The notes: generated by a model not told the origin, from the letters alone. DNA of 64,000 nucleotides from Verrucomicrobiota bacterium (GCA_018648805.1 JABGQM010000001.1:101896-165895), one strand, 5' to 3'. Positions 30,132 through 47,180 are shown, counted from the stretch's first letter. Numbers and translations are program-made.

Positions 30132-31244
30132 CTAATTCTGGCCGGCTTTGCGTATGATCCGCATCGCGTCACGGGTGCCTATAGGGTCGACGCCATCCAC
30201 CGAGAGGGTGGCCGAGACCGCGCAGCCGTGCAGGTAGTGGGTTGTCGTGACGGTTACGGCATCCGGGTCGGCTGAGTCGGCGGGGCGGTATTGCCAGCGT
30301 GGGCCGATGTGGGCACGCTCAGGCAGGCTGTCGAATGCGGCTTCCGTGAACTCCGTGTCCAGATGCGGACAGCTCAGGACGGTGGCGAGGTGGGCCGTGA
30401 GGCTTTCTGCGATGGCGTGCTTGTCGAAGATGAATATCGCGTCGTCGCGGAAGTGTCCGAGTCCCATCCACGGCGCGCCCGGTTCCCATGGCATTCTGCT
30501 CAAGCGGCATCCCCACGGGTTCATGGGTCCATCCGGCATGCCAAAGCAGTAGGTCTCCGGATGTTCGCTCGCGGCGCGGCATTTCATGCAGGCCTCGACA
30601 TCAGCCGGGAGAGCCATCGGTGCGCTGCTCGGCTGCTCAGTGGGTGCCTCCCTATCCTCTGTCGTTGCGTCAGGCGCAAGAGCGGCGACGGCCTCATCGG
30701 GCACCGGTGTCGGTGGTGGCACCGCGGGTGTGGGTGGCTTCTTTTCAGGCTTCGGTTTCGGTATGGGCACCGGTTTGGGCACCGGCTTAGAAGCCGGACG
30801 TGGCGGCGGTGGTGGTGCGGGGATCGGAGGGGGCGCACTCTCGTCCGTGTATGCTGAGGGTTTCCTACCTACGCGTTTCAAGGCATTCTTGGCGCGCTGT
30901 ACGGCCAAGTCCATGTCGGCCTGCGCATACCCCATGGCTTTCGCCATCTTCTCGATCGGGGCCGACTCCATGGGTGAGATGTGGCCGTCGGCGAGAGCCA
31001 CCATGATCATATCTTGCAGGTTGGCCAGACGCTCACCCGGGGCTTCAGGAACCTGCAGCTGGTAGTGACCGTCCGCGAGCATATCGCCCGCGGCGGCCAC
31101 ATCATCTCGGGTGCCTCCGATACTGTGGATGATCGACCGCAGTACGAGGGATTCGGTTGCAGCGACCTCCCCCCCTACCTTGGCAATGCAGAGCACATTG
31201 GCCAGATAGGCGGGGCGATTCACTTTAGCTACGACCTTACTCAT
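30132..31244 (-). CDS. TerB-like N-terminal domain protein with Pro-rich linker and Cys-containing C-terminal domain
   Basis: N-terminal TerB/DjlA-N-like helical domain; PPPPRPASKPVPKPVP linker; last gene of the NfeD-flotillin operon. Confidence 0.45.
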   Translation of the reverse strand: MSKVVAKVNRPAYLANVLCIAKVGGEVAATESLVLRSIIHSIGGTRDDVAAAGDMLADGHYQLQVPEAPGERLANLQDMIMVALADGHISPMESAPIEKMAKAMGYAQADMDLAVQRAKNALKRVGRKPSAYTDESAPPPIPAPPPPPRPASKPVPKPVPIPKPKPEKKPPTPAVPPPTPVPDEAVAALAPDATTEDREAPTEQPSSAPMALPADVEACMKCRAASEHPETYCFGMPDGPMNPWGCRLSRMPWEPGAPWMGLGHFRDDAIFIFDKHAIAESLTAHLATVLSCPHLDTEFTEAAFDSLPERAHIGPRWQYRPADSADPDAVTVTTTHYLHGCAVSATLSVDGVDPIGTRDAMRIIRKAGQN

Positions 31245-31256
31245 AGGATTGCAGCC

Positions 31257-32744
31257 TTATGCGGTCGGGGGCTCATCCACCGGCGCGTCATTGCTGGCGG
31301 TCTTACCCAGGTATTCCGGCAGATCCAAACCGATCTGCTTGGCCAGCTCGTGCATCGGCGGCAGAGCGCCCATCATGCGCTGTCCAAGTCCGGACATCCC
31401 CTGGTTCTCTCCGCCGGTGTCCCAGACGAAGATCTTGTCGATCGGCAGGTCTTGAATGGCCTGGGCCTGGATCCGTGCGATCTCCTGCAGCTTCTCGATC
31501 AGGAGCAGCGAGGCCGCCTGTTCGGCTGAGGCGCAGGACTGTACGAGGCGTTGGTAACCCTCAGCCTTGCCGTCCAGAATGGCCTGCACACCCTTACCTT
31601 CAGCGGTCATGCGTGCCAGCGTGGCCTGGGCTTCACCCTCGGCGATGCGCACGGCTTTCTGCTTCTGGGCGTCAGCGGCAATCACGACCTTCTCGCGGTC
31701 GGCGTTGGCCGGCACCACGATCTCGGCGTTCAGGCGTGCCTGCTCACGTTCAGAGCGCGCTTCTTCAGCCATCTTTTCCGCGACTTCCTGGGCCACGCGA
31801 ATGGCACCATCTGCTTCACGTGCGGCAGATTCGGCGCGGTTACGGGCCTCTTCCTCGGCCACGCTCTGATTGGCCCGGAAGGCCGCCTTCTCGGAATCGG
31901 CTTCGGTTTCGCCCGACACCGCCTGCGCATCCAGGGCGGCTGATCTTGTGCGGCGATCCTTATCGGCCAACGCTTCACCAATCTCAGCATCGGCATTGGC
32001 TGCTGCCACAGCCACGCGCTGATCACGGTTGCGCTCGGCGACACCGGTCTTACCCGTTTTCTCCTGCTCGGCCACGTCGACGTTGGCCTGGTTGATCGCT
32101 TCGGCAGCAGCGCGGCGTCCTAGTGCGACGATGTAGCCGGACTCATCCTCGATGTCGCGGATGTTGACGTTGATCAGGGAGAGACCGATCTTCTCCAGCT
32201 CGCCGCTGACCGCATCATTCACCTTCGCGAGGAAGGCTTGCCGGTCCGCGTTGATCTCTTCGATTTTCATCGTGGCGATAACGGCACGCATCTGGCCGAG
32301 GATGATGTCCTGGGCCTGATCTTGGATCTCCTTGCTGGTAAGCCCAAGGAGGCGAATCGCCGCGTTCTGCATGATCCCGGTTGTTGTTGAGACGGCCGCG
32401 GTAACCGTGGTTGGCACCGTGACACGGATGTTCTCGAACGAGAGCGCATTCTTGAGATCGATGGGGACCACGAAGGGCTCCAGGTCCAGGTAGTCATAGG
32501 CCTGGATCAGCGGCCAGACGAATGCGGCGCCACCGTGAATACAGCGGGCGGCTCCGGCGTTTGTTTTTCCGTAGATCACCAGGATCCGGTTGGACGGACA
32601 GCGCTTGTAGCGCCGCGCGAAGCTAATGAACAGTATGATCACGGCCGCGGCCAGGATCATGGCCAGGACCAGAGCCACGGGGGCTCCCGATTTTGCCGAA
32701 CGACCGGCCTGGGCGATTACTATAGGTAGCATTGAGTTGATCAT
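31257..32744 (-). CDS. flotillin-like SPFH/band-7 protein (YqiK/FloA-like)
   Basis: N-terminal TM, SPFH domain, long Ala/Glu-rich coiled-coil flotillin repeat region. Confidence 0.85.
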   Translation of the reverse strand: MINSMLPIVIAQAGRSAKSGAPVALVLAMILAAAVIILFISFARRYKRCPSNRILVIYGKTNAGAARCIHGGAAFVWPLIQAYDYLDLEPFVVPIDLKNALSFENIRVTVPTTVTAAVSTTTGIMQNAAIRLLGLTSKEIQDQAQDIILGQMRAVIATMKIEEINADRQAFLAKVNDAVSGELEKIGLSLINVNIRDIEDESGYIVALGRRAAAEAINQANVDVAEQEKTGKTGVAERNRDQRVAVAAANADAEIGEALADKDRRTRSAALDAQAVSGETEADSEKAAFRANQSVAEEEARNRAESAAREADGAIRVAQEVAEKMAEEARSEREQARLNAEIVVPANADREKVVIAADAQKQKAVRIAEGEAQATLARMTAEGKGVQAILDGKAEGYQRLVQSCASAEQAASLLLIEKLQEIARIQAQAIQDLPIDKIFVWDTGGENQGMSGLGQRMMGALPPMHELAKQIGLDLPEYLGKTASNDAPVDEPPTA

Positions 32745-33355
32745 TTCTTACCTCCCTCTTCTGTTTCTGAGACGACTTCTACTTCTACTGTTGCCGGGCC
32801 CAGGATGCGTGTGACGACGACGGGCGTCCCCGACGTGATCGCCACACCACTGTGGGTCCTCGCTTTTACGAATGAAATAACATCACTGACCGCAATCCGC
32901 ACCTCGCCCTGGCCGGCTTCTGGGATATCCAGGTAAACCGTGCCATGTGCGCCCAGAGTTGAGGCAATGCGTTTCGTGCCGGTGTGCGCCAGTTTTGGGA
33001 GCAGCGAAAGGAGCACGGCCACACTGGCCATACCGGCCAGACCCCAGATCGTCGAGATACCCATGGCACGGCCGAGCGCCTCCCCGCGGCTGAGATAGAG
33101 TGCACTGCCCCACGTGAAGAGGGTGCAGAACGTGACGATGGCTCGTATGCTCAGCAGTCTGAATGCCACGACGGTGCCATCCGCATCGGCATCAAACTCA
33201 TCCGCGCCGGCGCCATCCCCCACGTCATCGCCGCTGTCATCATCCAGCCCGATCATCGCTGCAATCAGTTGCCACAGGAAAAACACACTGAAAAATGCCG
33301 CCGCACAGAAGAATCCTCTGTTTATGGTCGTTAGACCGTCCCACCAAGCTGTCAT
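32741..33355 (-). CDS. NfeD-like membrane protein (YqiJ-like; OB-fold C-terminus)
   Basis: TM helices plus C-terminal OB-fold; 4-bp overlap with the downstream flotillin gene, the classic nfeD-flotillin pairing. Confidence 0.7.
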   Translation of the reverse strand: MTAWWDGLTTINRGFFCAAAFFSVFFLWQLIAAMIGLDDDSGDDVGDGAGADEFDADADGTVVAFRLLSIRAIVTFCTLFTWGSALYLSRGEALGRAMGISTIWGLAGMASVAVLLSLLPKLAHTGTKRIASTLGAHGTVYLDIPEAGQGEVRIAVSDVISFVKARTHSGVAITSGTPVVVTRILGPATVEVEVVSETEEGGKK

Positions 33356-33931: not shown

Positions 33932-34351
33932 CTGACCTCCTCGATGCGCCGCCATAATCGCAGCAGGCCTTTCTGACGGCCATTAGAATCTGCAGGTTTG
34001 TTTATACCGGTGTGCGATGCCCTTGTCCACGCTGTCGCATGACTGATTCTTTTGTCACAGCTCTGCCAGGGAGAGCCGTTTTCCAGAAGATCGCCGAGGC
34101 ACGGCAGACATACGCCATATTACGCTGTGCACGAAGATGTTGCATCAACAGCGACGAAATCCAAAAGGTAGAGCGCCCGATAATGCCCGAAAGTGAATGG
34201 CAAACACGCAAGAAGCGGATTTACGCGAAGTTGAGGGCCTAACCTGACCCACAGGGCCTGTATCCCTGTGGAGCACGTTCATCCGCAAATCCGACCTTCT
34301 CTCTTGCGGTGATTTTGGCTATAACCCCTGCAATTGAAAAGCTGATCTGTT

Positions 34352-37300
34352 TTGAGGTGCATGAAAGGCGTTGGGATGATCGACGATTTGGTACAGGGGT
34401 TCGATGCGGAGCTGTTCTGCACACTTCTCAACGAGAAGTTTGCCGGGACGTTCTCGCCTATCGCGAAACCTATCCCCGTCGACAAGGACTTGCCCTGGAA
34501 AAGCGCGGAACAGCTCGGCATCGTGAAGGCTCTCCCTGATGCAAACGATGTCAATATGCCACTGCTGGTTGTTGCCGCGGAGTTGCCTGAGGGCGAGGAA
34601 CTGCGGGAGCGTAGCAGCCGCATCAAGCAGTTCAAATTCGCCAAGAAGGTGTTGGACTCGGCAATGTCCAGCCCGTCCCCCGGTGTCGACGGGCTGCCCT
34701 CGCAGGGGCTGTTCGTGTTCCACGATGACCAGGGGAACTTCCGCCTCAGCCTTGTCTACGGGAAGCCTGAGGGGACGAAGCTGGTGTGGAGCGCAGTCAA
34801 GCGACTCAGCTTCTACGTCGAAGCCGGAGACGGCAATAAGACCTTCCGTGATCGCGTGGCACTGCCGTGGAGCAGTTTCGACAAGTTGAAAGACGCCTTT
34901 TCAGTCGAGAAACTGACCAAGGAGTTCTACGGCCGACTCTTCAAGTGGTATCAGTGGGCGTTGTCCGATGAGATGGGTGTGACGTATCCCAACGATACGG
35001 AAACAGACGAGGATGACCGACAGATAAGCGAACACATCATCCGGCTGATTACCCGCCTGATGTTCGTCTGGTTTCTGAAACAGAAGCATCTCGTTCCTGA
35101 TGATCTCTTTAACCAAGCCAAGCTGAAGCAGGTCCTCAAGAAGTTCGATCCCGTTTCGGGCGACAACTACTACAGGGCCATCCTTCAGAATCTCTTCTTT
35201 GCCACGCTCAACTCGGAAATCCCCGAGCGCGCGTTCGCCACGCAGACAGGCGACCGAAGCGAGCACTTCGATATCAAGACTCTCTACCGTTACCCCAAGG
35301 AGTTTTCGATTTCAGAGGCTGACGTACTCGAGCTGTTCAAGGGTATTCCATTCCTTAACGGTGGGCTCTTTGAGTGTTTGGACCGGGGTCGAAACTACTA
35401 TGATGGATTCTCTCGTAACCGGAACAAAGCGGCAAAGATACCCAATCGGCTGTTCTTCGATGAGACCGAGGGCATTATTCCGCTTCTGTGTCAGTACAAC
35501 TTCACCGTGGAAGAGAATTCACCTGGCGACGAAGAAGTGGCACTCGATCCCGAATTACTGGGGCAAGTGTTTGAGAACCTCTTGGGTGCTTACAATCCGG
35601 AAACGGAAGTAGCGGCGCGTAAGGCAACGGGTTCGTTCTACACTCCGCGCGAGATTGTCAACTACATGGTGGACGAAAGCCTGATTGCCCACCTCAAGGC
35701 CCGGTGTGGCGAAGAGCAAGAAGAGATGATCCGCAAGCTCTTCGATGATGGAGAGTGCCCTGAGAACAAGGCGTTGTGCGAGCAGCTTGATCAGGCGTTG
35801 GTGACGGCCAAGATATTGGACCCCGCCTGCGGGTCGGGTGCCTTTCCGATGGGCATACTGCTGCGGATGGTTGAGCTTCTGCGTGTTCTGCGGGGAATTC
35901 CGGAGGACAACTCGGTCTATGAACTGAAGTTGCAGTTGATAGAGAATTGTATCTACGGCGCGGATATCCAGTGCATTGCCGTTCAGATTTCAAAACTCCG
36001 GTTCTTCATCTCCCTAGTTTGTGAGCAGAAGAAAGATGACTCCGCCGAGAACTACGGCATCAACTCTCTCCCGAATCTCGAAACGAAATTCGTGGCGGCG
36101 AATTCACTGATCGGTCTGCCGCAGTCTGGCAGAGATATTCTGGATCTGTGTACGGGCGACATTGCCACGCTCAAAGAGCAGCTTTTCGAAGTGCGTCATC
36201 AGCACTTCTCAGCAAAAACATTTCAGGAGAAGAAGGGGCTTCGCCGTGAGGACAAGAAGCTCCGCGGCTCCATCAAGCACACGGTGCGCCATGATGCACA
36301 GCCCGACCGCAGGCACCTTGAGCTCTTGCTCAAGGAGCGGGAGAAGGTGGCAGAGCCGAGATGGGAGGAGATTGCGCCTCCCCCCGCCAAGCAGGAGGAG
36401 ATGTTTGCTGGTTTGGCTCAAGCAGACACTATCCCTGCTGACCTCAAGTACGATGCCAACGAGAAGCAGCGTAAAGCACTCGACGCGGAGATTGCCCGCG
36501 AGAACAAGAGGCAGGATGTTCCGTCCACCGAAATTGATTCGATCGCCGACATGCTTGCCTCTTGGGACCCGTACGACCAGAACACTAGTGCGAGCTTTCT
36601 CGATCCCGAATGGATGTTCAATGTTACCGATGGATTTGACCTGGTCATCGGGAATCCACCGTATGGTATCCGCTACCAACGAACGGCACCGGAGCTTCGT
36701 TTCCCCGGTGCAGACCACGCTCTAAAGGTCCCTGACAGCTACATGGTGTTCATTCTTCGGTGTACGGGCTTTATGGTGAGCGGCGGCTCTATGAGCTTCA
36801 TTGTGCCCAATACATTCTGCGATCTGGAGAATGCTGATGCCTTTCGTCGCCACGTCCTTCGTTCGTTCTCGCTAAGGAATATATGGCAGACCGGATGGGC
36901 TTTTGACTCTGCCGTCGTCGATACGCTGGTGTTCTTCATGAGTAAACGGCCGCCCAAGGCCAGGGCCATGGTCGAGATCCTCATCGACGGGCGTACGTTT
37001 GCTCGCTCACTGCAGAGTTTCCTAAGCAACGAACTGTCAAAGATAGATTACCGTAACGATGCCAGTGACAGGAAATTGCTCGATAAGCTCTCCACTGTTG
37101 GAACACCGCTTAGTAACCTGGCTTCGGTCAAAGCGGGTGTCAAACTCTACGAACGGGGTAAAGGTATTCCACCCCAAGATGCCCGCGTTATTGCCAAAAA
37201 GCCTTATACAGTGAAAGAAACCTGCCCCAAAGGGTGGCGTCCCCTTTTCAGAGGGGGGCATGTGGAACGGTATCGCCTGGCCGTAACCGGCGAATTCGTC

Positions 37301-37909
37301 CATTACGGAGAGTGGCTGGCCGCCCCAAGAGCACCCGAACTATTTGAGGGTCCAAAGATCCTAGTCCGAAGAACAGACGATGTTCTTCGCGCAGCTCTCG
37401 AAGAGCACGGGGGCGTTGCCGTCAACTCATGTCATGTCATCAAAATTCTCGATAGCCGTAGCGAGAGACCCGCCTATGAGTACTTGGCTGCTTGCCTGAA
37501 TTCGCGACTACTTCAATATTTCTTTGAACGGAAGAATCCGCAGATGGTCGGAAAGACATTCGCCGAAATCAAGGTCGTGTATGTGGAGCGGCTTCCTGTT
37601 CGGGTCATTGACTGTGCCAATGAGGTAGAAAGCGAGATACGAGATACGCTGATTGGCCTCGCAAGACGGGTCACCTCCGCGAGGACAACCAATCCTTCTG
37701 CCGATGTATCTCCCCTTGAAGCCGAGATCGACCAACTTGTCTACAAGCTCTATGGTCTGACGACGGATGAGATTGCACTCGTCGAGGAGAGCGCGGCGAC
37801 TGCCGGCAAGGCTTCTGGGCGTTCGAAGAAGACAGCAGCAATGCCGAAGAAGAAGGTGCGCAGGAAGCGGAAGGCGGACCTCCCGCCATCCTTGCCTGGT
37901 TGGGATTGA
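34352..37909 (+). CDS. large N6-adenine DNA methyltransferase, PglX/MmeI/Eco57I family (gamma-class; MmeI-like N-terminal domain + MTase + C-terminal TRD-like region)
   Basis: Motif X GSFYTPREIV, motif I LDPACGSGAFPMG, motif IV VIGNPPYG in gamma-class order; 1185 aa; N-terminus resembles the MmeI/PglX N-domain but no clear PD-(D/E)xK triad; start could also be 34361 or 34376. Confidence 0.85.
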   Translation: MRCMKGVGMIDDLVQGFDAELFCTLLNEKFAGTFSPIAKPIPVDKDLPWKSAEQLGIVKALPDANDVNMPLLVVAAELPEGEELRERSSRIKQFKFAKKVLDSAMSSPSPGVDGLPSQGLFVFHDDQGNFRLSLVYGKPEGTKLVWSAVKRLSFYVEAGDGNKTFRDRVALPWSSFDKLKDAFSVEKLTKEFYGRLFKWYQWALSDEMGVTYPNDTETDEDDRQISEHIIRLITRLMFVWFLKQKHLVPDDLFNQAKLKQVLKKFDPVSGDNYYRAILQNLFFATLNSEIPERAFATQTGDRSEHFDIKTLYRYPKEFSISEADVLELFKGIPFLNGGLFECLDRGRNYYDGFSRNRNKAAKIPNRLFFDETEGIIPLLCQYNFTVEENSPGDEEVALDPELLGQVFENLLGAYNPETEVAARKATGSFYTPREIVNYMVDESLIAHLKARCGEEQEEMIRKLFDDGECPENKALCEQLDQALVTAKILDPACGSGAFPMGILLRMVELLRVLRGIPEDNSVYELKLQLIENCIYGADIQCIAVQISKLRFFISLVCEQKKDDSAENYGINSLPNLETKFVAANSLIGLPQSGRDILDLCTGDIATLKEQLFEVRHQHFSAKTFQEKKGLRREDKKLRGSIKHTVRHDAQPDRRHLELLLKEREKVAEPRWEEIAPPPAKQEEMFAGLAQADTIPADLKYDANEKQRKALDAEIARENKRQDVPSTEIDSIADMLASWDPYDQNTSASFLDPEWMFNVTDGFDLVIGNPPYGIRYQRTAPELRFPGADHALKVPDSYMVFILRCTGFMVSGGSMSFIVPNTFCDLENADAFRRHVLRSFSLRNIWQTGWAFDSAVVDTLVFFMSKRPPKARAMVEILIDGRTFARSLQSFLSNELSKIDYRNDASDRKLLDKLSTVGTPLSNLASVKAGVKLYERGKGIPPQDARVIAKKPYTVKETCPKGWRPLFRGGHVERYRLAVTGEFVHYGEWLAAPRAPELFEGPKILVRRTDDVLRAALEEHGGVAVNSCHVIKILDSRSERPAYEYLAACLNSRLLQYFFERKNPQMVGKTFAEIKVVYVERLPVRVIDCANEVESEIRDTLIGLARRVTSARTTNPSADVSPLEAEIDQLVYKLYGLTTDEIALVEESAATAGKASGRSKKTAAMPKKKVRRKRKADLPPSLPGWD

Positions 37910-37937: not shown

Positions 37938-39614
37938 ATGGTGCACACGCAGGAAGAGCTAAAGCTGATTCTGGAGAACCTGATTGCTTCATGGGAGAAC
38001 GAGGTCGTTGAGTTCAAACGGGCTGGGGATGACTACAGCACGGACAAGATCGGCAAGTATCTCTCCGCTTTGGCGAATGAGGCCAATCTGCGGGGCATCG
38101 AACGCGCATGGCTGGTTTTCGGCGTCGACGACAAGTCGCGCCAGGTGGTTGGCTCAGACTACCGCCCCGAAACGGAACGTTTGCAGTCAATCAAGATGCA
38201 GATGGCGGAAAATACGGAGCCGAGTGTCACCTTCCGAAATGTGCATGAAGCCGTGTTTGTCGAAGGTCGGGTTGTTATGTTTGAGATTCCGGCCGCCCCC
38301 CGGGGAATTCCTATTGCATGGAAAGGCCATTGCTATGCGCGCGCCGGGGAGAGTCTGGTTGCGCTGGGCTTGGACAAGCAGGATGAAATCCGGAATCAAA
38401 CGGCGGCCACGGATTGGTCCGCTCAGCCCGTTCCCAGCGCGACAGTTGACCATCTCGATCCGCAAGCTGTCGCAACGGCTCGTCGTTCATTTACACAGAA
38501 ATACGCTAATCGGTTTGACAAGGAAACGGTAGATGGATGGTCCACATCGACGTTTCTTGACCGTGCCCGGTTGACTCAGGGCGGAGCGATTACCCGTACT
38601 GCGCTTCTGTTGTTGGGTAAGGCGGAGGCAGCACACCTTTTGTCCCCGCATCCGGTGCAGCTGACATGGAAGCTGCAGGGGGCTGAACGCGCCTATGAAC
38701 ATTTTGGGCCTCCCTTTCTGTTAAGCTCCAGTGCGTTGTATCAGCGTATCCGCAATGTGCAGGTCCGGGTGTTACCGGATGATGAGCTTTTGCCGGTTGA
38801 AGTTTCAAAATATGATCAGCGCGTGGTTCTTGAAGCCCTGCATAACTGCATTGTTCACCAGGACTATGCGCGCAATGGGAGGGTCATTGTCACCGAGATG
38901 CTGGATAAGCTTGTGTTTGAGAATGAGGGTGATTTCTTCGAGGGGAAGCCCGAGGACTATATTGCGGGTGAAAAGACCCCGAGTCGCTACCGGAATCCAT
39001 TTCTTGCCCAGGCGATGGCGGAGCTGAACATGATCGACACCATGGGCTATGGTATCCACGATATGCATATGGGACAGGTGAAACGCTTCTTCCCGCTCCC
39101 GGACTACGACTTGGGCAAGCCCAATTCGGTGCGAGTGATCCTCTACGGAAAGGTGGTCGATCCTGCCTATACACGACTGCTTATCCGGAACACCGATCTG
39201 CCTCTGGCCGATGTGTTGGCCTTGGATCGGGTCCAGAAAGAACTCCCTGTAGAGGATGCCACTGTTAGGCGATTACGTAGAGCGGGCATGATCGAAGGTC
39301 GGCGGCCGAACCTGCATATTGCCGCAAAATTGGCAGAAGCAACGGGAACAAGAGCTGCATATATAAAGACTAGAAGGCAGGACGATGCCTACTACGCCAA
39401 ACTCGTTACGGATTTCTTGAGACAATATGGCACAGCTACCCGTAAGGATATGGATGATCTGCTGCTGAACAAGATCAGCGACGGGCTAACGCACCAGCAG
39501 AAAAGGAACAAGGTACACAACCTTCTTGGCAAATGGAAAACTCAGGGCTTGATTGAGAACCAGGGCGGACGGGGTAATGGAGCTCTGTACGCTTTGATAA
39601 GTGATGACGAATAA
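37938..39614 (+). CDS. AlbA_2 (divergent AAA/Schlafen-like DNA-binding) + HATPase_c_4 + C-terminal HTH protein (RecG-C-terminal-like; RM-associated accessory)
   Basis: N-terminal ENEVVEFKRAGDD…LVFGVDD (AlbA_2 signature); HNCIVHQDY (HATPase_c_4 signature); 29 bp downstream of the MTase. Confidence 0.75.
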   Translation: MVHTQEELKLILENLIASWENEVVEFKRAGDDYSTDKIGKYLSALANEANLRGIERAWLVFGVDDKSRQVVGSDYRPETERLQSIKMQMAENTEPSVTFRNVHEAVFVEGRVVMFEIPAAPRGIPIAWKGHCYARAGESLVALGLDKQDEIRNQTAATDWSAQPVPSATVDHLDPQAVATARRSFTQKYANRFDKETVDGWSTSTFLDRARLTQGGAITRTALLLLGKAEAAHLLSPHPVQLTWKLQGAERAYEHFGPPFLLSSSALYQRIRNVQVRVLPDDELLPVEVSKYDQRVVLEALHNCIVHQDYARNGRVIVTEMLDKLVFENEGDFFEGKPEDYIAGEKTPSRYRNPFLAQAMAELNMIDTMGYGIHDMHMGQVKRFFPLPDYDLGKPNSVRVILYGKVVDPAYTRLLIRNTDLPLADVLALDRVQKELPVEDATVRRLRRAGMIEGRRPNLHIAAKLAEATGTRAAYIKTRRQDDAYYAKLVTDFLRQYGTATRKDMDDLLLNKISDGLTHQQKRNKVHNLLGKWKTQGLIENQGGRGNGALYALISDDE

Positions 39615-39842: not shown

Positions 39843-42800
39843 ATGCTGATCACGAATATAAGCGAAGAGAACAGCTTGCTGACGCGGTTGGATCATCTAA
39901 TCGCGGAGAGCGAGGAGATGCGGGTTTTAGTGGGGTTCTTCTATTTCTGGGGAATCAGTGCCCTGCATGGCGGCTTGAGCAAGAACAAGGATTTTAAGGT
40001 TAAGATACTGGTGGGGCTGCAAGCGGAGGAGCATGCGGGGAAGATTGTTGAATTTGCGGGCGAACAGAGCCCGGAGATGACGGATGAAGAGCGGCGTTCG
40101 GGCTTCCTTGCAAGCCTGCGGTCAGTGATGCGAAGCCGCGAGGTTGATACGCAGAAATACTATGAACGAGTCTCGTTGTTTGTCGACCTGGTGAAGTCGG
40201 GGCAGATTGAAATCAAGAAGCCGCGCGAACCGAACCACGCGAAGCTGTATCACTATACACTGAAGAAGGGGCTGGCGCAGACACTGGACCGCAAGTACTG
40301 CTGGATTACGGGTAGCAGCAACATGACACGGCCCGGGCTGCTGGAGCAGAACGAGCTGAATGTGCAGCTTCTGGACTTTGGCGGCGAGGAGGCGAAGCAG
40401 TTCTTTGATGCACTGTGGAAGACCGCCGTGCCTTTGACCGACGATCCGGCCACCAAACAACGAATCATTGAAATGGTGGATGGCGATGAATCGCTCTTGG
40501 CCTCTGTTACTCCGTTCGAAGCATACGCGCTAGTCCTGAAGAACTACTTGGAACATCGCGATCTTTCCGACAGAACTCCGTCAATCGAGCGCGTTCTTGC
40601 TGAGCCGAAGGATGACGATGATGACTGCAAATATCGACCCTTGAGTTTTCAGGTGGATGCGGTCAATCAGGCCCTTTCGATCTTGCGTGAATACAATGGC
40701 GTGATCATTGCGGATGTGGTGGGTCTGGGTAAATCCGTGATGGGTAGCGTACTGGGCCGGGTGAATGGAAAACGGGGCATTGTGATTGCGCCACCGGGAT
40801 TGGTGGGAGATCAGAGCACAGGAACCGGCTGGTGGGGGTATCTGGAGGATTTCGGGCTGCATGACTGGCGCGCTGTTTCGCGCGGGAAACTGGATGAGGT
40901 ACTGGATCTCGTCAACCGCCAACGCGATTTCGAACTGGTTGTGGTAGACGAAGCACACTATTTTCGAAATCAGGACAGCGAGGATTATCACTATCTTTCG
41001 CAGATTTGCCGTGGCAAACAGGTTGTGTTGATGACGGCAACGCCCTACAGCAATCGCCCGAGCGATATGCTCTCACTTCTCAAACTGTTTACCCCCGCCC
41101 GACAATCGCTCTTGACTCCCGACGGGAATCTGGAAGCGCTGTTTCGAGGGTATCAGATTCAATACAACCGGGTTGACTACGTGTTGAAGCACCTTGAAAG
41201 TCCCGACCGTGCGGACAAAGTTGAGAGTCACTTGCGGAAGCTCGGCATATCGCTCGATGTCACGCAGGGGAACTACAAGAAGATCCGCCATGAGGTCAAG
41301 GCGCTCTGCAAAGGTTTGGCGCAGGAAATCCGGCAGGTGGTTGAACCGGTGATGATCCGCCGCAACCGGCTGGATCTGAAAGGCGATCCGGATTACGCGG
41401 GAGAAGTTGGCCAGAACCTGCCGACGATGCACGATCCGGTAGAGCAGTTCTACGAGCTGTCGCCAGAACAGAGCGAGTTCTACGATTTGGTCATCAGTGA
41501 GTATTTCGGCGAAGACAGCGCGTTTACGGGTGCGATTTATCAGCCCGGCGCCTATATGCCCGACCGGGCAGATGTGGACGCGGAGGCCGAAGAAGACGTG
41601 GGCGACTCTCGAGCGCTGGCCAATACCCAGCAGCGTAACATGTACAAGTTCATCCGCCGCTTGCTCGTGCGGCGTTTCGAAAGCTCATTCGGAGCTTTTG
41701 CCAACACGCTGGACAACCTGATTCGTGTGCACAGGAACGTAAGGCGGTTGGCCGTGCCCGCCCCGCTTGGCCGGGGGTTAATCGTCTTGGACCGTACGTT
41801 GATGGACAAGTTGGCGAATATGGAGAACGCATCTGACGAGGAAATCACCGAGATACTTCAGCGTCAGGAAGATCTGTTGAGTCCCGATGAGCTGGAAAAG
41901 CAACAGCGCAACCTACAAGTGTTCAGGGTTTCAGAGGATTTCGACGACGCAGGACGGGAGCAGTTCAATGCGGACCTACGAGCAGATATTCAGTTGCTGG
42001 AAAAGGTGAAAGCAGAAGTCGAGGCGCTCGACCTGATCGCCGATGATCCGAAGGCCCGAAAACTGATCGACGAGATTGAGGCGGTCCTTGCCGGGGAGCA
42101 CCCCGAACTCATCAGTGTTTCCAACGAACCACAACGGAAGATCCTCGTCTTCAGCGAGTTCGGTGACACTGTGAATCACCTGAAGGTGTATCTTGATGCC
42201 AAGTTCCCCGATCAGGTGTTGACCGTCCGCTCGCTGAGCAAAGGAGTTGCAAAAACGGTCCGCCAGAATTTTGATGGAGCCTGCAATCCTGGGTTGCAGC
42301 AAGATCAATACAAGGTCCTACTCGCAACCGATAAGATGTCCGAGGGATTGAACCTGAATCGCGCCGGATTGGTTATTAATTATGATATTCCGTGGAATCC
42401 GACGCGGGTGATCCAGAGAGTTGGGCGTATCAACAGAATCGGCACCAAAGTGTTTGATGATCTCTATCTGTTCAACTTCTTTCCGACCGAACAAGGCAAG
42501 GATCAGCACAATGTTCGGCAAATCGCGTCCAACAAGATGTTCATGATTCATGCATCAATCGGTGAAGATGCGAAGATTTTCGATACGGATGAGGAGCCGA
42601 CCCCGGCGGGGCTGTTCGAGAAGCTGAGCAGGAATCCCGACGAACTCGAAGAAGAGAGCTTTCTCACGCAGGCGAAGCGCGAGTGGGCTGAGATCCGCAA
42701 GAAGCATCCAGAGGTTGTCGAGAAGATCGGCAAGCTGCCAGGTCGCGTCAAGACCACGCAGCAGAGATCACCGGAAGGGGTCTACATGTTTGCTCGCAAG

Positions 42801-43280
42801 GGAATGACTCTGTTTGCCCTATGGCAACAGGTTGCGGGTGAAGAAGCAGAGATCGCTCACCTTTCGCTGCATGATGCCATAACCGCGATTAGATGTCCGT
42901 TTGATGCCAGGCCGGGCAAGCAGGTTGCGGACACGTTTTGGCCAAGCTATGAGGCTCTACAGGAAAGCCTGACCGATCGGCGGCATGCAAATCCACCGGG
43001 AGCAACGTCCCTAATCACCAAAGCACGCAACGTGCTTGCGACAGCGATTGGCAGCGGATCTGGTGGCTCTTTCGTGAAGATACTGCTGGACGATCTCCAG
43101 AATTGCGGCACTCTTTCAGATCGGACCTTGCGGAAGCTCATTGATGCCTCACGGGACAGCAAGGCGTTTGCGAAACTGATCAAGCAGCTTGAAACTGAAA
43201 TGGGGGCGGATTACCTGAATGCCATCAAGACGCGGATGCCACCCAATGAGGTGGTCATAGCGTTTGAGCACCAACTGTAA
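39843..43280 (+). CDS. PLD-family nuclease :: SNF2/SF2 helicase fusion protein
   Basis: N-terminal HxK…GSxN PLD motif (NHAKLYHY…ITGSSNMT); Walker A DVVGLGKSVMG, DEAH box VVVDEAHYFRN, helicase-C motif VI QRVGRINRIG; ~300-aa C-terminal extension. Confidence 0.85.
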   Translation: MLITNISEENSLLTRLDHLIAESEEMRVLVGFFYFWGISALHGGLSKNKDFKVKILVGLQAEEHAGKIVEFAGEQSPEMTDEERRSGFLASLRSVMRSREVDTQKYYERVSLFVDLVKSGQIEIKKPREPNHAKLYHYTLKKGLAQTLDRKYCWITGSSNMTRPGLLEQNELNVQLLDFGGEEAKQFFDALWKTAVPLTDDPATKQRIIEMVDGDESLLASVTPFEAYALVLKNYLEHRDLSDRTPSIERVLAEPKDDDDDCKYRPLSFQVDAVNQALSILREYNGVIIADVVGLGKSVMGSVLGRVNGKRGIVIAPPGLVGDQSTGTGWWGYLEDFGLHDWRAVSRGKLDEVLDLVNRQRDFELVVVDEAHYFRNQDSEDYHYLSQICRGKQVVLMTATPYSNRPSDMLSLLKLFTPARQSLLTPDGNLEALFRGYQIQYNRVDYVLKHLESPDRADKVESHLRKLGISLDVTQGNYKKIRHEVKALCKGLAQEIRQVVEPVMIRRNRLDLKGDPDYAGEVGQNLPTMHDPVEQFYELSPEQSEFYDLVISEYFGEDSAFTGAIYQPGAYMPDRADVDAEAEEDVGDSRALANTQQRNMYKFIRRLLVRRFESSFGAFANTLDNLIRVHRNVRRLAVPAPLGRGLIVLDRTLMDKLANMENASDEEITEILQRQEDLLSPDELEKQQRNLQVFRVSEDFDDAGREQFNADLRADIQLLEKVKAEVEALDLIADDPKARKLIDEIEAVLAGEHPELISVSNEPQRKILVFSEFGDTVNHLKVYLDAKFPDQVLTVRSLSKGVAKTVRQNFDGACNPGLQQDQYKVLLATDKMSEGLNLNRAGLVINYDIPWNPTRVIQRVGRINRIGTKVFDDLYLFNFFPTEQGKDQHNVRQIASNKMFMIHASIGEDAKIFDTDEEPTPAGLFEKLSRNPDELEEESFLTQAKREWAEIRKKHPEVVEKIGKLPGRVKTTQQRSPEGVYMFARKGMTLFALWQQVAGEEAEIAHLSLHDAITAIRCPFDARPGKQVADTFWPSYEALQESLTDRRHANPPGATSLITKARNVLATAIGSGSGGSFVKILLDDLQNCGTLSDRTLRKLIDASRDSKAFAKLIKQLETEMGADYLNAIKTRMPPNEVVIAFEHQL

Positions 43281-43308: not shown

Positions 43309-43818
43309 ATGAGCAAGACAGGCAAATGCAAGAAGGCGGATCAGAGCCTAAAAGCCCTGGATGCGCAGGTCGCTGCGGTTACGGAGCATCTGATCTGTGT
43401 GTACGATGTTCTGGCCGGGATATGCAAAAAGAAACCCAAAGCTAAGTCACACACAAGGGTTCAGGAATTGAAGCAGCTTCCGGTAAAGCAAGGTGGGCTG
43501 GATTTCTATATCCAGTTTGCCCTCGTAGCAGATGATGCGGAAATAGAAGGCGCAATTGTTTACGGAGCATCCCGAGAACCTTGTTATCCAAATTCTCTTT
43601 GGCCGAATCCCGACAAGAAGCAACAGGAACGACCTCTAGCGTGTTTCTTTCTTGATTCCCTCGGAAAGGTCAGCATCAAAGGTAAATTGCAGGATGAGTG
43701 GTGGCTTACTGGCACAGAAGCAGATACCCAGGCAGCAGTTGAAGAAATGCACTATCGCGTCCTTGATATGATTTGGCGTGATGCATTGAACTGGACAAAC
43801 GAGCCACTCTTGCCCTAG
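43309..43818 (+). CDS. hypothetical protein (169 aa) in the island operon
   Basis: RBS GGAGGGG; no recognisable motif; AT-richer composition than the genome. Confidence 0.5.
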   Translation: MSKTGKCKKADQSLKALDAQVAAVTEHLICVYDVLAGICKKKPKAKSHTRVQELKQLPVKQGGLDFYIQFALVADDAEIEGAIVYGASREPCYPNSLWPNPDKKQQERPLACFFLDSLGKVSIKGKLQDEWWLTGTEADTQAAVEEMHYRVLDMIWRDALNWTNEPLLP

Positions 43819-43831
43819 CGGAGAAGGATTC

Positions 43832-45409
43832 ATGGAAAAGCTAACAGTACTGTCCCTCCTAAATAAATATCAGACATGGGTCAGAAATGGCGACATACAG
43901 TTTCTACCGAAAGCCTCTGAAGCCCAGAAAACCATCCTTGATCTTCTCGCCGAGCTTATTCCTGATTTCGAATTGGCAGGCGCGCAGGAGGGGGGGCTGA
44001 GCAAGAACCTTGACTGGTATAAAACACACGCGAAAGGCCGGAAGCTGTGGCAGGAACTTGTTAGCGCCTCTCTGAATAGCATAGACCCAGATTCCAAGGG
44101 AAATTCCACGCTGTTCGACTATCTAGAGAAAGCGACTCTCTTTGAGGATGTCTTGTATGGTCTTGAGGAGTACTACCGCGATCATACGCTTCACTCAATT
44201 TGGGTCTATTTGATAGGGGAATACATGCTCAGGGATCACCTCTCGGATGTCCGCAGTAACCTGAACTGGTATCTTTACAACGATTTTGAGAGTGAGAAGG
44301 CGTCCTACAAGCGGGATCTGATGCGCTACGCTCGTAAGAAGGAGCAGGATATTCGTGCTCAGGTAAACGAGAAACAAGATGCTGTTTGGTGCATCATGGC
44401 CCTTTGTCATGATTTAGGATACTCCCCCGCCAAGTTGAACAAGATCAATGATCGTGTCAGGGACGTTCTGAAGTTCTTTGATCTGCCGGAATTCAAACAA
44501 GTGGGGTATTCGCTGGATCTTGAGCAGCAGTTTCTCGTATCGCAAGTCCTTGAAATGATGGCTATGGATGTGCGCATCGTTCCGAGCGAGAATTACAGAG
44601 ATCCAGAAGTTGATACCGACGAAAAAGTGAAAATCAGAGGGTATCGTGATGACGCAACATACTGGCGCCTCTGCCGTGCTCTCGAGAAGCGACAGCATGG
44701 GATTCTAAGTTCCTATCTCCTTTACAAACTTGTCGGGTTGTTCGCCGAGTCGTGGGTTCGCGGGACCGGGGAAGAATGGGGACTTGAGGATTCTGAAGTG
44801 GTGGAGAATATCATTCGAGGTGACATTCTTTTTGCTATTGCGCAACATGAGTTCGATTATGCCCACATGAATCAGGTGGGAAGCCTCGCGGAAATCTTGT
44901 TCATTGCTGACGAGCTTGAGGAGTTTTCCCGGTATGGACGGCAACTTCTATCGCGGGAATACTCAGATACCACGGCTGAGACCGCCATAGAATTCACACC
45001 ACAAAACCCGAAACAGGGCGAGGATGTGGAGATCAATATTCTTTATGATTATGACACATCGCGAGGTCTGGCTGATTACTTCAACTTTTTCTGGCGAAAG
45101 GCGCAACGCCTCTGCACCGTCTATTCGCTTGATCTGGAAAAGGGTAGCGAGAGGTACTGTACAATCAACCGAGTCAAGATAACCGTCGCACGCGAGCGGC
45201 ACGAATTCTTCTTTGAGCTTCGCAAGGGAGCAGAGAACAAGAACAAGGGCTTCTTGCCTAGGACGAAGATTGGCCCTGTAGACTATGAAGAGGGAGAGTA
45301 CCTCCTCTCGTGCACGGATGACCGAATAGATGTGCTGACGAAGAACGGAAAAGTGAACCTGAAGGATTGGTGCAAGGATGCGGACAAACAGTACTCGTCA
45401 GCATCTTGA
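43832..45409 (+). CDS. putative HD-domain phosphohydrolase-like protein
   Basis: Candidate HD-superfamily motifs RDHTLHS and MALCHDLGY (cf. LLHDIGK); spacing longer than canonical; lowest-GC gene of the island. Confidence 0.4.
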   Translation: MEKLTVLSLLNKYQTWVRNGDIQFLPKASEAQKTILDLLAELIPDFELAGAQEGGLSKNLDWYKTHAKGRKLWQELVSASLNSIDPDSKGNSTLFDYLEKATLFEDVLYGLEEYYRDHTLHSIWVYLIGEYMLRDHLSDVRSNLNWYLYNDFESEKASYKRDLMRYARKKEQDIRAQVNEKQDAVWCIMALCHDLGYSPAKLNKINDRVRDVLKFFDLPEFKQVGYSLDLEQQFLVSQVLEMMAMDVRIVPSENYRDPEVDTDEKVKIRGYRDDATYWRLCRALEKRQHGILSSYLLYKLVGLFAESWVRGTGEEWGLEDSEVVENIIRGDILFAIAQHEFDYAHMNQVGSLAEILFIADELEEFSRYGRQLLSREYSDTTAETAIEFTPQNPKQGEDVEINILYDYDTSRGLADYFNFFWRKAQRLCTVYSLDLEKGSERYCTINRVKITVARERHEFFFELRKGAENKNKGFLPRTKIGPVDYEEGEYLLSCTDDRIDVLTKNGKVNLKDWCKDADKQYSSAS

Positions 45410-45424
45410 ATAGGTGAGATCTTT

Positions 45425-45802
45425 ATGGCGGGGAAAGTATACGGCTACGAGCTGATTCTGGATCTTCACGGTTGTGATGTGTCTACATTCAACCGCGAGA
45501 GTCTTGATAGCTATTTTGAGAAGCTCTGCAAGGCGATCAAGATGGTGAAGTGTGAGCGGTATTTCTGGGATGACGTCGGCGTCCCTAAGGAGGAGCAGCA
45601 AACTTCCCCGCATACGAAAGGCACGTCGGCGGTGCAGTTCATCCTGACTAGCACTATTGTGATTCATACACTGGAACTGATGGAAGCGGCCTACATAAAT
45701 ATTTTCTCCTGCAAAGAGTATGATGCAGGAGTGGCGGAGCAAATAACACGAGAGTGGTTTGGTGCAGAAGAATGCAAGACGCACTTTATCGAGAGGATCT
45801 GA
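45425..45802 (+). CDS. SpeH-like pyruvoyl-dependent S-adenosylmethionine decarboxylase family protein (small AdoMetDC fold)
   Basis: Colinear with bacterial SpeH: GYELILDLHGCD ~ GRHVISELWGCD; FILTSTIVIHTLELMEAAYINIFSCK ~ [26 protein letters not shown]; processing Ser retained but the flanking ES-H is T-S-T. Confidence 0.6.
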   Translation: MAGKVYGYELILDLHGCDVSTFNRESLDSYFEKLCKAIKMVKCERYFWDDVGVPKEEQQTSPHTKGTSAVQFILTSTIVIHTLELMEAAYINIFSCKEYDAGVAEQITREWFGAEECKTHFIERI

Positions 45803-45803
45803 C

Positions 45804-47180
45804 ATGCAATTGGTAGAGAAAGAGATACTGATCCCGGCACGCGATAACCAAGATGGACTTCTTGAGTATCTTGGCCAGGCGGTGGCCGCTGGCCTGAATG
45901 GCGATGAGATTCCCGTACGTGTTGCCGTTACGCGGACGGACAGTGAAGGATATCACTGTGAAGTGGGCATTCTCTCTGGAGTTGATCACTCCAAAGCCGA
46001 GAGTATTGAGTCGATGTTTGACCTTCGCCGCCGTGAATATGAAAACAACCAGGATTTCAATGCGGCGCTATTGGTTCCCACTGGAATAGGGGCGGAGATC
46101 GGTGGTCATTCGGGAGACGCTGGGGCCGTTGCACGGCTGATGGCCGCGAGCTGTGACAATCTCATTACGCATCCCAATGTCGTCAACGCCGCCGACATCA
46201 ACGAGTTGCCGGAGAACGGTCTCTATGTTGAAGGAAGTGTCATTTCCCGGCTGATGATGGGCACTGTCGGTTTACAGAAGGTCCGGTCAAATCGCGTGAT
46301 GATGATTGTGGATCAACACACTGACAAGATGTTCCATGAACTGTCCATCAACTCGGCCTCTGCCGCCCGTGCGGCCTTGGGACTAGACTGTCCTCTCGTA
46401 GTGAAGATGGAAGACCGTATTCTGATGCGTGCGTTGTTTTCAAAGTCAGGACGCGCTGTTGGCCAAATCGAGTTTCTGGAGTACCTATGCGAGGTGCTGG
46501 AAGAGCACCGGTCTGAATATGATGCCGTTGCCCTCACCTCGTTGATCAGTGTGCCAGAGCGTTTCCATAGCGACTACTTCGATAAGGACTCTGACATGGC
46601 TGTCAACCCGTGGGGCGGTGTTGAAGCCATGCTGACGCACGCTATCTCGATGCTATTTAACGTGCCATCAGCACATTCCCCCATGATGACATCGTCCGAA
46701 GTTATGAATCTGGATGTTGGCATCGTGGATCCCCGGAAATCGGCAGAGGCCGTTTCATCCACATATCTGCACTGTATTCTCAAGGGGCTGCACCGCAGCC
46801 CGCGGGTTGTGCCAGACATACCAATCCATGGCGATCCGGGGCTGTTGACTGTTGCGAACGTATCTTGTCTCGTGATTCCAGATGGGTGTGTTGGGTTGCC
46901 AACACTTGCGGCACTTGAGCAGGGCATCCCTGTTATTGCCGTCAAGGAGAACAAGAACTGCATGCGGAACCGGCTGGAAGATCTGCCCTTCGCACCAGGC
47001 AAACTCTTCATCGTTGAAAACTACCTTGAGGCCGCTGGCATCATGACGGCTCTAAGAGCAGGTGTTGCAGTGGACACTGTCCGCCGCCCCTTGGCGGATA
47101 CTGTGGTTGTGAACGCTCGCCGCCAGCACCATACAGAGTTTGCTCCGGCCGCAACCGAAGAGCGCACCTCGAGGGTGTGA
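45804..47180 (+). CDS. conserved hypothetical protein (458 aa), translationally coupled to the SpeH-like gene
   Basis: TGA-C-ATG coupling with the upstream gene; glycine-rich segment VPTGIGAEIGGHSGDAGAVARLMA and C-terminal VIPDGCVGLPTLAAL suggest Rossmann/SLOG-like folds (speculative). Confidence 0.5.
   Translation: MQLVEKEILIPARDNQDGLLEYLGQAVAAGLNGDEIPVRVAVTRTDSEGYHCEVGILSGVDHSKAESIESMFDLRRREYENNQDFNAALLVPTGIGAEIGGHSGDAGAVARLMAASCDNLITHPNVVNAADINELPENGLYVEGSVISRLMMGTVGLQKVRSNRVMMIVDQHTDKMFHELSINSASAARAALGLDCPLVVKMEDRILMRALFSKSGRAVGQIEFLEYLCEVLEEHRSEYDAVALTSLISVPERFHSDYFDKDSDMAVNPWGGVEAMLTHAISMLFNVPSAHSPMMTSSEVMNLDVGIVDPRKSAEAVSSTYLHCILKGLHRSPRVVPDIPIHGDPGLLTVANVSCLVIPDGCVGLPTLAALEQGIPVIAVKENKNCMRNRLEDLPFAPGKLFIVENYLEAAGIMTALRAGVAVDTVRRPLADTVVVNARRQHHTEFAPAATEERTSRV

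Follow-up and report, generated by a model that had tools for sequence, protein, structure and literature searches.

A widespread PLD-SNF2 fusion protein paired with an N6-adenine DNA methyltransferase: candidate motor-nuclease subunit of a two-gene restriction-modification-like module

Introduction

Among described defence systems, the architecture closest to the one considered here is that of the Type-2 BREX-related systems, in which an HKD domain stands at the N-terminus of a Swi2/Snf2 helicase accompanied by an N6-adenine methyltransferase, and which have been proposed to act in a restriction-modification-like manner with the HKD-Snf2 fusion as the primary effector (Rakesh & Krishnan, NAR 2026; PMC12839542). 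The defining gene of BREX-related systems encodes a DUF499 AAA+ ATPase, and Type 2 has in addition a stand-alone DUF3780 gene, found in 98% of the loci (PMC12839542). In HmaABC of Halomonas meridiana, a nuclease-fused Snf2 helicase has been shown experimentally to be required against T4 (Liu et al. 2024; PMC11232893). Here we analyse a gene encoding a PLD nuclease domain and a SNF2 ATPase core in a single polypeptide (hereafter PLD-SNF2), together with the gene of a large DNA methyltransferase, in a stretch of 64,000 nucleotides (nt) from a Verrucomicrobiota bacterium (GCA_018648805.1, JABGQM010000001.1:101896-165895). This whole stretch is referred to below as the window, and all positions are counted from its first letter (Table 1). 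We favour, at a probability of about 60%, the reading that PLD-SNF2 and the methyltransferase form a two-gene ATP-dependent restriction-modification-like module, the former as its restriction subunit (motor and nuclease) and the latter as the subunit for specificity and modification.

The locus resembles the Type-2 BREX-related systems in having an N-terminal HKD on an Snf2 helicase that adjoins an N6-methyltransferase; unlike in those systems, DUF499 and DUF3780 were found neither in the window genes scanned nor as conserved families in 80 related loci. With HmaABC it shares the methylase partner, but HmaA carries a PD-(D/E)xK nickase at its C-terminus, whereas the PLD of PLD-SNF2 is N-terminal, the system includes a third gene, hmaC (a DUF499 ATPase), and the PADLOC model of HmaA covers only residues 584-870 of PLD-SNF2 (102 bits). 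Class 1 DISARM likewise combines a SNF2 protein, a PLD protein and a large N6-adenine methyltransferase in one locus, but its signature pair, DrmA and DrmB, was not found here.

Three further groups of enzymes are relevant. In Type III/ISP systems, a methyltransferase bearing a target-recognition domain and an SF2 ATPase-nuclease, encoded in a two-gene operon, act on unmodified sites. The logic proposed here for PLD-SNF2 and its partner, and their two-gene arrangement, are the same, but the motor is of the SNF2 type, the nuclease is a PLD and not PD-(D/E)xK, and the methyltransferase is an Eco57I/type IIG-like gamma enzyme with TaqI_C and not a beta-class Mod. In systems of the NgoAVII/CglI type, a PLD nuclease of the RE_NgoFVII family works with an SF2-like ATPase; the corresponding model also recognises the PLD domains studied here (see below), but in NgoAVII/CglI nuclease and ATPase are two different proteins, the nuclease recognises DNA through a B3-like domain, and methylation is by a C5 enzyme. 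SauUSI, finally, also joins a single-HKD PLD and an SF2 ATPase in one chain, with the PLD at the N-terminus. It differs in that its ATPase is of the DEAD/ResIII type, its C-terminus is a modified-cytosine reader, it is modification-dependent (type IV) and it has no partner methyltransferase.

A PLD nuclease domain fused to a SNF2 ATPase core

The PLD-SNF2 open reading frame comprises 1145 codons from an ATG preceded, about 8 nt to the 5' side, by a Shine-Dalgarno-like GGAGAGGA, and it begins and ends exactly where an earlier, sequence-only reading of this DNA had placed it. That reading described a PLD domain and a complete SNF2 core in one polypeptide, and every motif it had quoted was recovered: NHAKLYHYTLKK...ITGSSNMT at residues 131-162, the Walker A sequence GLGKS at 294-298, DEAH at 369-372 and motif VI, QRVGRINRIG, at 858-867. 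Lobe 1 additionally contains TATP (residues 398-401). About 275 residues remain beyond motif VI, and they are conserved, in agreement with the C-terminal extension noted earlier. Scored as a single sequence, the protein exceeds the Pfam cut-offs for both SNF2-rel_dom (37.5 bits, cut-off 24.9) and Helicase_C (59.7 bits, cut-off 23.5), while ResIII reaches only 16.9 bits. By its motifs and these scores, PLD-SNF2 is a member of the SNF2 family of SF2 ATPases. A phmmer search of the PDB with the whole protein retrieved only generic matches to the C-lobes of SNF2/DEAD helicases.

A public Verrucomicrobia metagenome-assembled genome record (P0004) contains an identical protein annotated as a 972-residue 'helicase' with a later start, which excludes window positions 39843-40361. 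This start removes the whole PLD domain, so that the annotation hides the nuclease. The long form is backed by dozens of homologues of about 1145 residues.

To characterise the N-terminal domain, its 262 residues were searched as a family, based on an alignment of 21 full-length homologues (43-84% identity), and the N-terminal domains of 12 homologues were tested against profile libraries. PLDc_2 matched all 12 (best E-value 9.4e-10), and RE_NgoFVII, the PLD model of the NgoFVII restriction endonuclease, matched 11 of them. Among PADLOC models, ZacB was found in 11/12 and mREase_IV (SauUSI-like) in 5/12, and PbeA and type II restriction PLDs were also matched; DrmC was recognised in 3/12, marginally (E ~4e-3). 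Searching the PDB with the N-terminal profile gave one significant match, 7CLG_A (E = 4e-7), extending over HAK...GSSNLT...NV. This entry (database label 'putative helicase'), the only solved structure matched, we take to be SauUSI, a PLD-SF2 helicase restriction enzyme. Similarity to the PLD fold, whose absence would have undermined the sequence-only reading, is thus confirmed at the profile level. Judged by these matches, the PLD domain is far closer to restriction-type PLDs than to DrmC.

The domain displays the HxK...GSxN pattern, with about 22 residues between K134 and GSSN, and E171 and N173 come after G157-S-S-N160; the canonical Asp four residues past the Lys is absent. In 71 near-full-length homologues (median identity ~40%), H132, K134, G157, S158, N160 and E171 are invariant in 71/71, and so are GLGK(S/T), DExH, TATP and QRxGRINR (motif VI) of the ATPase core. 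This invariance indicates strong purifying selection on the catalytic centres of both the PLD domain and the ATPase. There is one HKD motif per PLD-SNF2 chain, so an active site would need two chains. Nuc and BfiI are precedents: each is a single-HKD chain, and the active site is formed by two chains.

Two regions of the protein fall outside the recognised domains. The family-specific insert between the ATPase lobes (median identity in the family, 36%) received no assignment in domain scans. The C-terminal region is modelled as helices, a four-stranded sheet and a helical bundle, and searches found no assignable fold or domain in it; it is a candidate surface for methyltransferase docking or DNA binding.

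Table 1. Coordinates of the module, its cargo gene and the downstream cassette in the window
Feature	Coordinates	Strand	Length or residues	Support or remark
Partner DNA methyltransferase	34352..37909	+	1185 aa from TTG 34352	
Cargo gene between methyltransferase and helicase, Schlafen/AlbA_2 + HATPase_c_4	37938..39614	+	558 aa	
PLD-SNF2 protein, predicted motor-nuclease subunit	39843..43280	+	1145 aa	
PLD (HKD) nuclease domain	39843..40487	+	aa 1-215	one HKD-type motif
N131-H132-A-K134 codons	40233-40244	+	aa 131-134	
G157-S-S-N160 codons	40311-40322	+	aa 157-160	
SNF2 ATPase lobe 1	40638..41102	+	aa 266-420	Pfam SNF2-rel_dom, DEAD, ResIII
Family-specific inter-lobe insert	41103..42092	+	aa 421-750 (~330 aa)	alignment
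SNF2 ATPase lobe 2, including motif VI	42093..42482	+	aa 751-880	Pfam Helicase_C 3.9e-16
Conserved C-terminal region	42483..43277	+	aa 881-1145 (~265 aa)	
Four-gene cassette	43309..47180	+		adjacent but separable
169-aa protein	43309-43818	+	169 aa	
525-aa protein	43832-45409	+	525 aa	conserved YRDHTLHS and ALCHDLGY
AdoMet decarboxylase	45425-45802	+		AdoMet_dc, 54 bits
DUF3326 protein	45759-47180	+		true start probably past 45802

Distribution of the PLD-SNF2 family

The fusion is no isolated case: its architecture is fixed across a large family. Scanning one genome per species, we found full-length homologues of 35-90% identity in at least 550 species genomes, and a word-indexed protein search with PLD-SNF2 returned more than 3500 matches. 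The full-length matches come from Verrucomicrobiota, Kiritimatiellia, Marinimicrobia, Bacteroidota and Chloroflexota, and cultured carriers of a relative include Flavobacterium celericrescens, Fibrobacter intestinalis ATCC 43854 and Neotamlana nanhaiensis. When the N-terminal profile was searched exhaustively, 161 representative clusters were obtained at E <= 1e-30. Among the 150 clusters listed, nearly all complete proteins are ~1040-1220 residues long, with the PLD domain at the extreme N-terminus, and this near-uniform length indicates that the fusion is constant within the family. In RefSeq the family is labelled 'helicase-related protein'.

Members of the family are also encoded on mobile elements, namely, plasmid pMESIL02 of Allomeiothermus silvanus, a plasmid of Thermus oshimai and 17 predicted viral (prophage-like) contigs. 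The copy on pMESIL02 (Allomeiothermus silvanus DSM 9946, NC_014214.1: 99721-107262; L164) represents the module in a cultured strain and offers a convenient experimental entry point. Its methyltransferase is seemingly split into WP_041653913.1 ('DNA methyltransferase', 787 residues) and a 327-residue hypothetical protein; the split gene lies upstream of WP_013159907.1 ('helicase-related protein'), and a second DNA adenine methylase is encoded nearby.

A housekeeping, RapA-like role for PLD-SNF2 is ruled out by a RapA score of 45 bits against a cut-off of 576, by the linkage to a methyltransferase described below and by the location of family members in islands, plasmids and prophages.

Near-obligate pairing with one large methyltransferase

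To define the conserved gene context, 80 related loci were translated in six frames and searched with the window proteins, and the neighbouring open reading frames were also clustered without prior assumptions. Only two families recur: PLD-SNF2 itself (80/80) and homologues of the window methyltransferase (53/80). When only loci flanked by at least 4.5 kb on each side are considered, a same-strand methyltransferase is present in 32/33. It lies upstream of PLD-SNF2 in 23 loci and downstream in 30, and overlaps of 4-60 nt between the two genes are frequent. The methyltransferase also adjoins PLD-SNF2 in 15/17 of the viral-contig loci and on pMESIL02. Clustering of the neighbouring open reading frames in the 80 loci revealed no third conserved gene. 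Pairing of PLD-SNF2 with one large N6-adenine methyltransferase is therefore obligate or near-obligate, operon-like and found in either gene order.

The pairing has been seen before: a table published in 2023 lists Cj0031-like genes beside PLD (cd09178) and SNF coding sequences, for which programmed inversions were reported (Milman et al. 2023; PMC9881135). The fusion thus evidently has a CDD model. We found no paper characterising the PLD-SNF2/methyltransferase two-gene family in the literature.

The partner methyltransferase and its specificity domain

The methyltransferase gene can be read from a TTG at 34352, but an ATG at 34361 or 34376 is the likelier start. The encoded protein consists, in order, of an N-terminal alpha/beta domain (~residues 9-213), a helical spacer (DUF7814/MmeI_hel-like), a gamma-class N6-adenine methyltransferase domain and a TaqI_C target-recognition domain. 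The DUF7814/MmeI_hel region (~residues 215-400) is recognised in about half of 41 homologues. It carries the motifs DPACGSGAF and NPPY (GNPPYG), separated by a long insert, and scores above the Pfam cut-offs for Eco57I (74.2 bits, cut-off 25.3) and TaqI_C (60.6 bits, cut-off 26.5), with N6_Mtase also matched. By motifs and Pfam scores, the partner is a gamma-class N6-adenine DNA methyltransferase. It is not PglX-like, as had been proposed: PglX models reach 41-56 bits against curated cut-offs of 400-900, including 56 against 500 for the NCBIfam model of BREX-1 PglX. The part of the proposal that stood is that the methyltransferase is the only conserved partner of PLD-SNF2 (32/33).

A comparison with close relatives (L001, L002 and L003) shows that the two genes of the pair diverge in different ways. 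In the methyltransferase, residues 1-600 are 72-84% identical, whereas the TaqI_C region (residues 800-1100) retains only 20-35% identity; the partner helicase is 85-97% identical throughout. The same mosaic pattern of the target-recognition domain is seen in partial-coverage matches to the methyltransferase. A mosaic specificity domain beside a conserved helicase points to recent exchange of that domain, the pattern expected of specificity switching in restriction-modification systems.

The domain order is that of type IIG/IIL enzymes (MmeI, DrdV, BpuSI, Cj0031), but the methyltransferase family differs from them in having no D...(D/E)xK and no MmeI_N match and in being tied to a separate motor-nuclease. 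An alternative is that the methyltransferase is a self-sufficient type IIG/IIL enzyme that cuts with its own N-terminal nuclease domain and PLD-SNF2 an accessory, a back-up or a processive degrader that acts after the first cut. In PADLOC the methyltransferase indeed scores best with type IIG REase_MTase models (188 bits), D125 of the N-terminal domain is 98% conserved, and related systems often possess back-up layers of nucleases (PMC12839542). However, the MmeI_N nuclease domain has no match in any of the 41 homologues, E86 is not strictly conserved, an invariant R131-x-S133 takes the place of the canonical (D/E)xK, and Foldseek with the model of the N-terminal domain gave no significant nuclease match. 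In addition, a near-obligate and often translationally coupled pairing suits a subunit better than an optional accessory. We therefore regard a self-sufficient type IIG enzyme as unlikely, although it retains the most weight among the alternatives. The N-terminal domain may have a restriction-endonuclease-like fold, and the methyltransferase is probably type IIG-derived with its own nuclease domain degenerate and presumably inactive, as its sequence features suggest.

Comparison with DISARM, BREX and Hma components

PLD-SNF2 had been read as a fusion resembling DrmC plus DrmD that lacks DrmA and DrmB. The absence holds: no DrmA/DrmB (DUF1998), DUF499, PglZ or BrxC was found among the window open reading frames scanned, and none of them is conserved across the 80 loci. 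The same is true of DUF3780, which gave no Pfam match in the window proteins scanned and has no counterpart in the form of a conserved small neighbour in the 80 loci. Since PLD-SNF2 and its partner stay far under the curated cut-offs for DrmD and PglX, respectively, the likeness to DrmC, DrmD and DISARM at large does not reach beyond superfamilies. For the helicase, DrmD gives the highest NCBIfam score, but NF038317 reaches 131 bits against a cut-off of 610, over the helicase C-lobe only, and NF038318 reaches 84 against 950; DrmC, as described above, is weakly matched by 3/12 N-terminal domains. Membership in BREX was rejected on the lack of PglZ and BrxC among the scanned open reading frames together with the BREX-1 PglX score.

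One could still suppose that the pair is a reduced or divergent class 1 DISARM (DrmD, DrmC and DrmMI) or a Type-2 BREX-related or Hma system whose other parts have been lost or are encoded elsewhere. The best curated helicase scores are those of DrmD (131 bits), BrxHI/II (108) and HmaA (102), the methyltransferase has a weak PADLOC match to DrmMI (46.7 bits), and an N-terminal HKD on a helicase paired with an N6-methyltransferase is precisely what Type-2 BREX-related systems have (PMC12839542). These helicase scores, however, lie far under the family cut-offs and reflect the generic helicase C-lobe; no third family is conserved in 80 loci from many phyla, even though DUF3780 accompanies nearly all Type-2 BREX-related loci; and a BREX-related-like helicase found in another locus (L107) matches PLD-SNF2 at only 46 bits. 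A remnant of a larger known system is, on this evidence, improbable.

The genomic island and its cargo gene

In the window the pair is not alone, contrary to the sequence-only reading, which had the protein paired with nothing but a methyltransferase: an AlbA_2/HATPase_c_4 gene lies between the two genes, and four plus-strand genes follow PLD-SNF2 with gaps of 14-29 nt. The intervening gene encodes a 558-residue protein matching SLFN_AlbA_2 (1.2e-16) and HATPase_c_4 (2.1e-10) in Pfam. Its homologues occur only sporadically among the 80 related loci, and it is not a core component of the module. The same slot is occupied in L001 (6232-9996) by an unknown gene, a DUF1016/YhcG nuclease gene and a gene for an AlbA_2-Fic_C protein, and in L002 (8742-9869) by a gene for a Fic/DOC protein. 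The slot between the methyltransferase and PLD-SNF2 thus appears to be an intra-operon insertion hotspot for other defence genes, similar to that reported within the hmaABC operon (PMC11232893).

The module sits in a stretch of low GC content (0.49-0.55 over 34-46 kb versus 0.59-0.66 in the flanks) between ordinary chromosomal genes. No tRNA genes and no convincing flanking repeats mark the island boundaries in the window, and scans of the window for promoters and terminators gave results at or under shuffle expectation. On the 5' side of the methyltransferase, a short open reading frame at 34036-34242 (+) ends in ...PESEWQTRKKRIYAKLRA and a stop codon; it resembles the SEADTRAKLIDP-type start of HsdR_N and, by this resemblance, may have been left behind by a restriction gene that formerly occupied the site. 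Further 5', outside the island, the minus strand encodes (30132-33355) a TerB-domain protein (30132-31244), a flotillin-like protein (31257-32744; NCBIfam FloT 113 bits, under cut-off) and a 204-residue open reading frame.

A separable four-gene cassette downstream

The four genes that follow PLD-SNF2 on the same strand form a cassette with its own distribution. None of them occurs in the 80 PLD-SNF2 loci, so the cassette is not part of the module; the 169- and 525-residue proteins in particular, considered as possible module parts, were ruled out by the lack of homologues there. The 525-residue protein has no Pfam match and looks H..HD-like from its motifs. Neither its profile nor DUF3326 gave a significant sequence match in the PDB, no PADLOC model matches the 169-residue, 525-residue or DUF3326 proteins, and the 525-residue gene was found in none of 2.9 million viral contigs.

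The 525-residue gene was located in 83 other loci (L081-L163), most of them on short contigs, where it is accompanied by DUF3326 in 58, by AdoMet_dc in 53 and by the small upstream gene in 48. A PLP (pyridoxal phosphate)-dependent Orn/DAP/Arg decarboxylase takes the place of AdoMet_dc in 13 loci. Where the upstream flank is long enough, the genes directly upstream are mostly same-strand restriction or defence genes, namely, type III Res/Mod (L081, L094), Mrr with a type IIG-like methyltransferase (L082), Eco57I-like methyltransferases (L083, L096, L135), a DUF1156 methyltransferase with a SNF2 helicase (L107), type I HsdR or HsdS (L119, L125, L127) and Shedu (L108); AAA_15/21 ATPases were also seen. 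The clearest exception is L093, which has type II secretion system genes upstream, and in L088 nothing but a gene for a large HATPase_c protein, on the other strand, is present; four further loci were left unannotated in this survey. For one DUF3326 protein, PavB, a role in the biosynthesis of a polyamine is indicated by a preprint of 2026. Possibly the cassette is an accessory of defence islands, as yet uncharacterised, and produces a small molecule such as a polyamine or decarboxylated S-adenosylmethionine (SAM).

It is conceivable that in the window the module acts jointly with the cassette, whose role might be to provide or detect a small molecule, SAM-derived or of the polyamine type, that modulates restriction. 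The cassette starts after a gap of 29 nt from the helicase stop on the same strand, no plus-strand terminator-like site lies between them, and in other loci type I, type III and type IIG-like systems immediately precede the cassette. Yet with the cassette in 0/80 of the PLD-SNF2 loci the module does not need it, and the cassette accompanies unrelated restriction-modification types and sometimes none (L093). We accordingly give a joint function of this kind little credence.

Discussion

Of the alternatives, the least probable by our assessment is a SauUSI-like modification-dependent (type IV-like) enzyme directed at foreign-modified DNA, with a functionally independent methyltransferase: the PLD domain's closest solved relative and the 5/12 mREase_IV matches point that way, but type IV enzymes need no cognate methyltransferase, yet here the two genes are linked in 32/33 loci and often translationally coupled, and no SRA, DUF3427 or similar reader domain was detected in the C-terminal region.

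The two-gene module is preferred because a near-obligate, often translationally coupled pairing fits each of the alternatives less well. It is supported by the invariant catalytic centres, the restriction-type PLD, the gene linkage, the lack of a third conserved gene, the mosaic target-recognition domain, the location in low-GC DNA, the cargo slot and the constancy of the fusion. In such a module, the swappable target-recognition domain would let the methyltransferase recognise a short sequence, whose copies in the host it would methylate. Unmethylated incoming DNA would lead to engagement of PLD-SNF2, probably via the methyltransferase, after which the SNF2 core would hydrolyse ATP and translocate along double-stranded DNA. 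Two copies of PLD-SNF2 would then join their PLD domains into one active site. Cutting would follow dimerisation or collision, as suggested by the single HKD motif per polypeptide. Protection of the host by methylation, contact between the two proteins and cutting by a PLD dimer are all steps that we infer.

Several observations weigh against this reading. PLDc_2 scores 17.7-21 bits on the window sequence alone, under the Pfam cut-off of 27; despite this, the PLD call is settled by the family-level matches. The C-terminal 265 residues and the 330-residue insert have no assigned function, which leaves room for recognition by the helicase instead of the methyltransferase. The four-gene cassette lies so near the 3' end of the module that it could be co-transcribed. 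Finally, we found no experiment on any member of the family. Overall, the earlier observation of a PLD-SNF2 fusion is confirmed and its interpretation partly supported: a translocase-nuclease effector acting with a methyltransferase is most likely, being the most economical reading.

A more specific proposal, which we put forward tentatively and hold with clearly less confidence than the module itself, is that the pair constitutes a distinct class of ATP-dependent restriction-modification, in which a nuclease-dead, type IIG-derived methyltransferase loads a trans-acting SNF2 double-stranded DNA translocase that cuts where two PLD half-sites meet. Such a class would stand outside Types I-IV, DISARM, BREX and Hma. 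The two-gene module as such holds no conceptual surprise, since both fusions of PLD with helicases and SNF2 helicases linked to methyltransferases are well known from bacterial defence. The downstream cassette may be even more novel, as a new small-molecule-based accessory of restriction systems.

If the favoured reading is true, the family would represent a widespread compact restriction system that combines a SNF2 motor of the chromatin-remodeller type with a PLD half-site nuclease. It would provide an example of a type IIG enzyme passing the cutting to a separate motor-nuclease and a simple system for the coupling of SNF2 motors to sequence-specific methylation. It would also give a name to thousands of genes now labelled 'helicase-related protein'.

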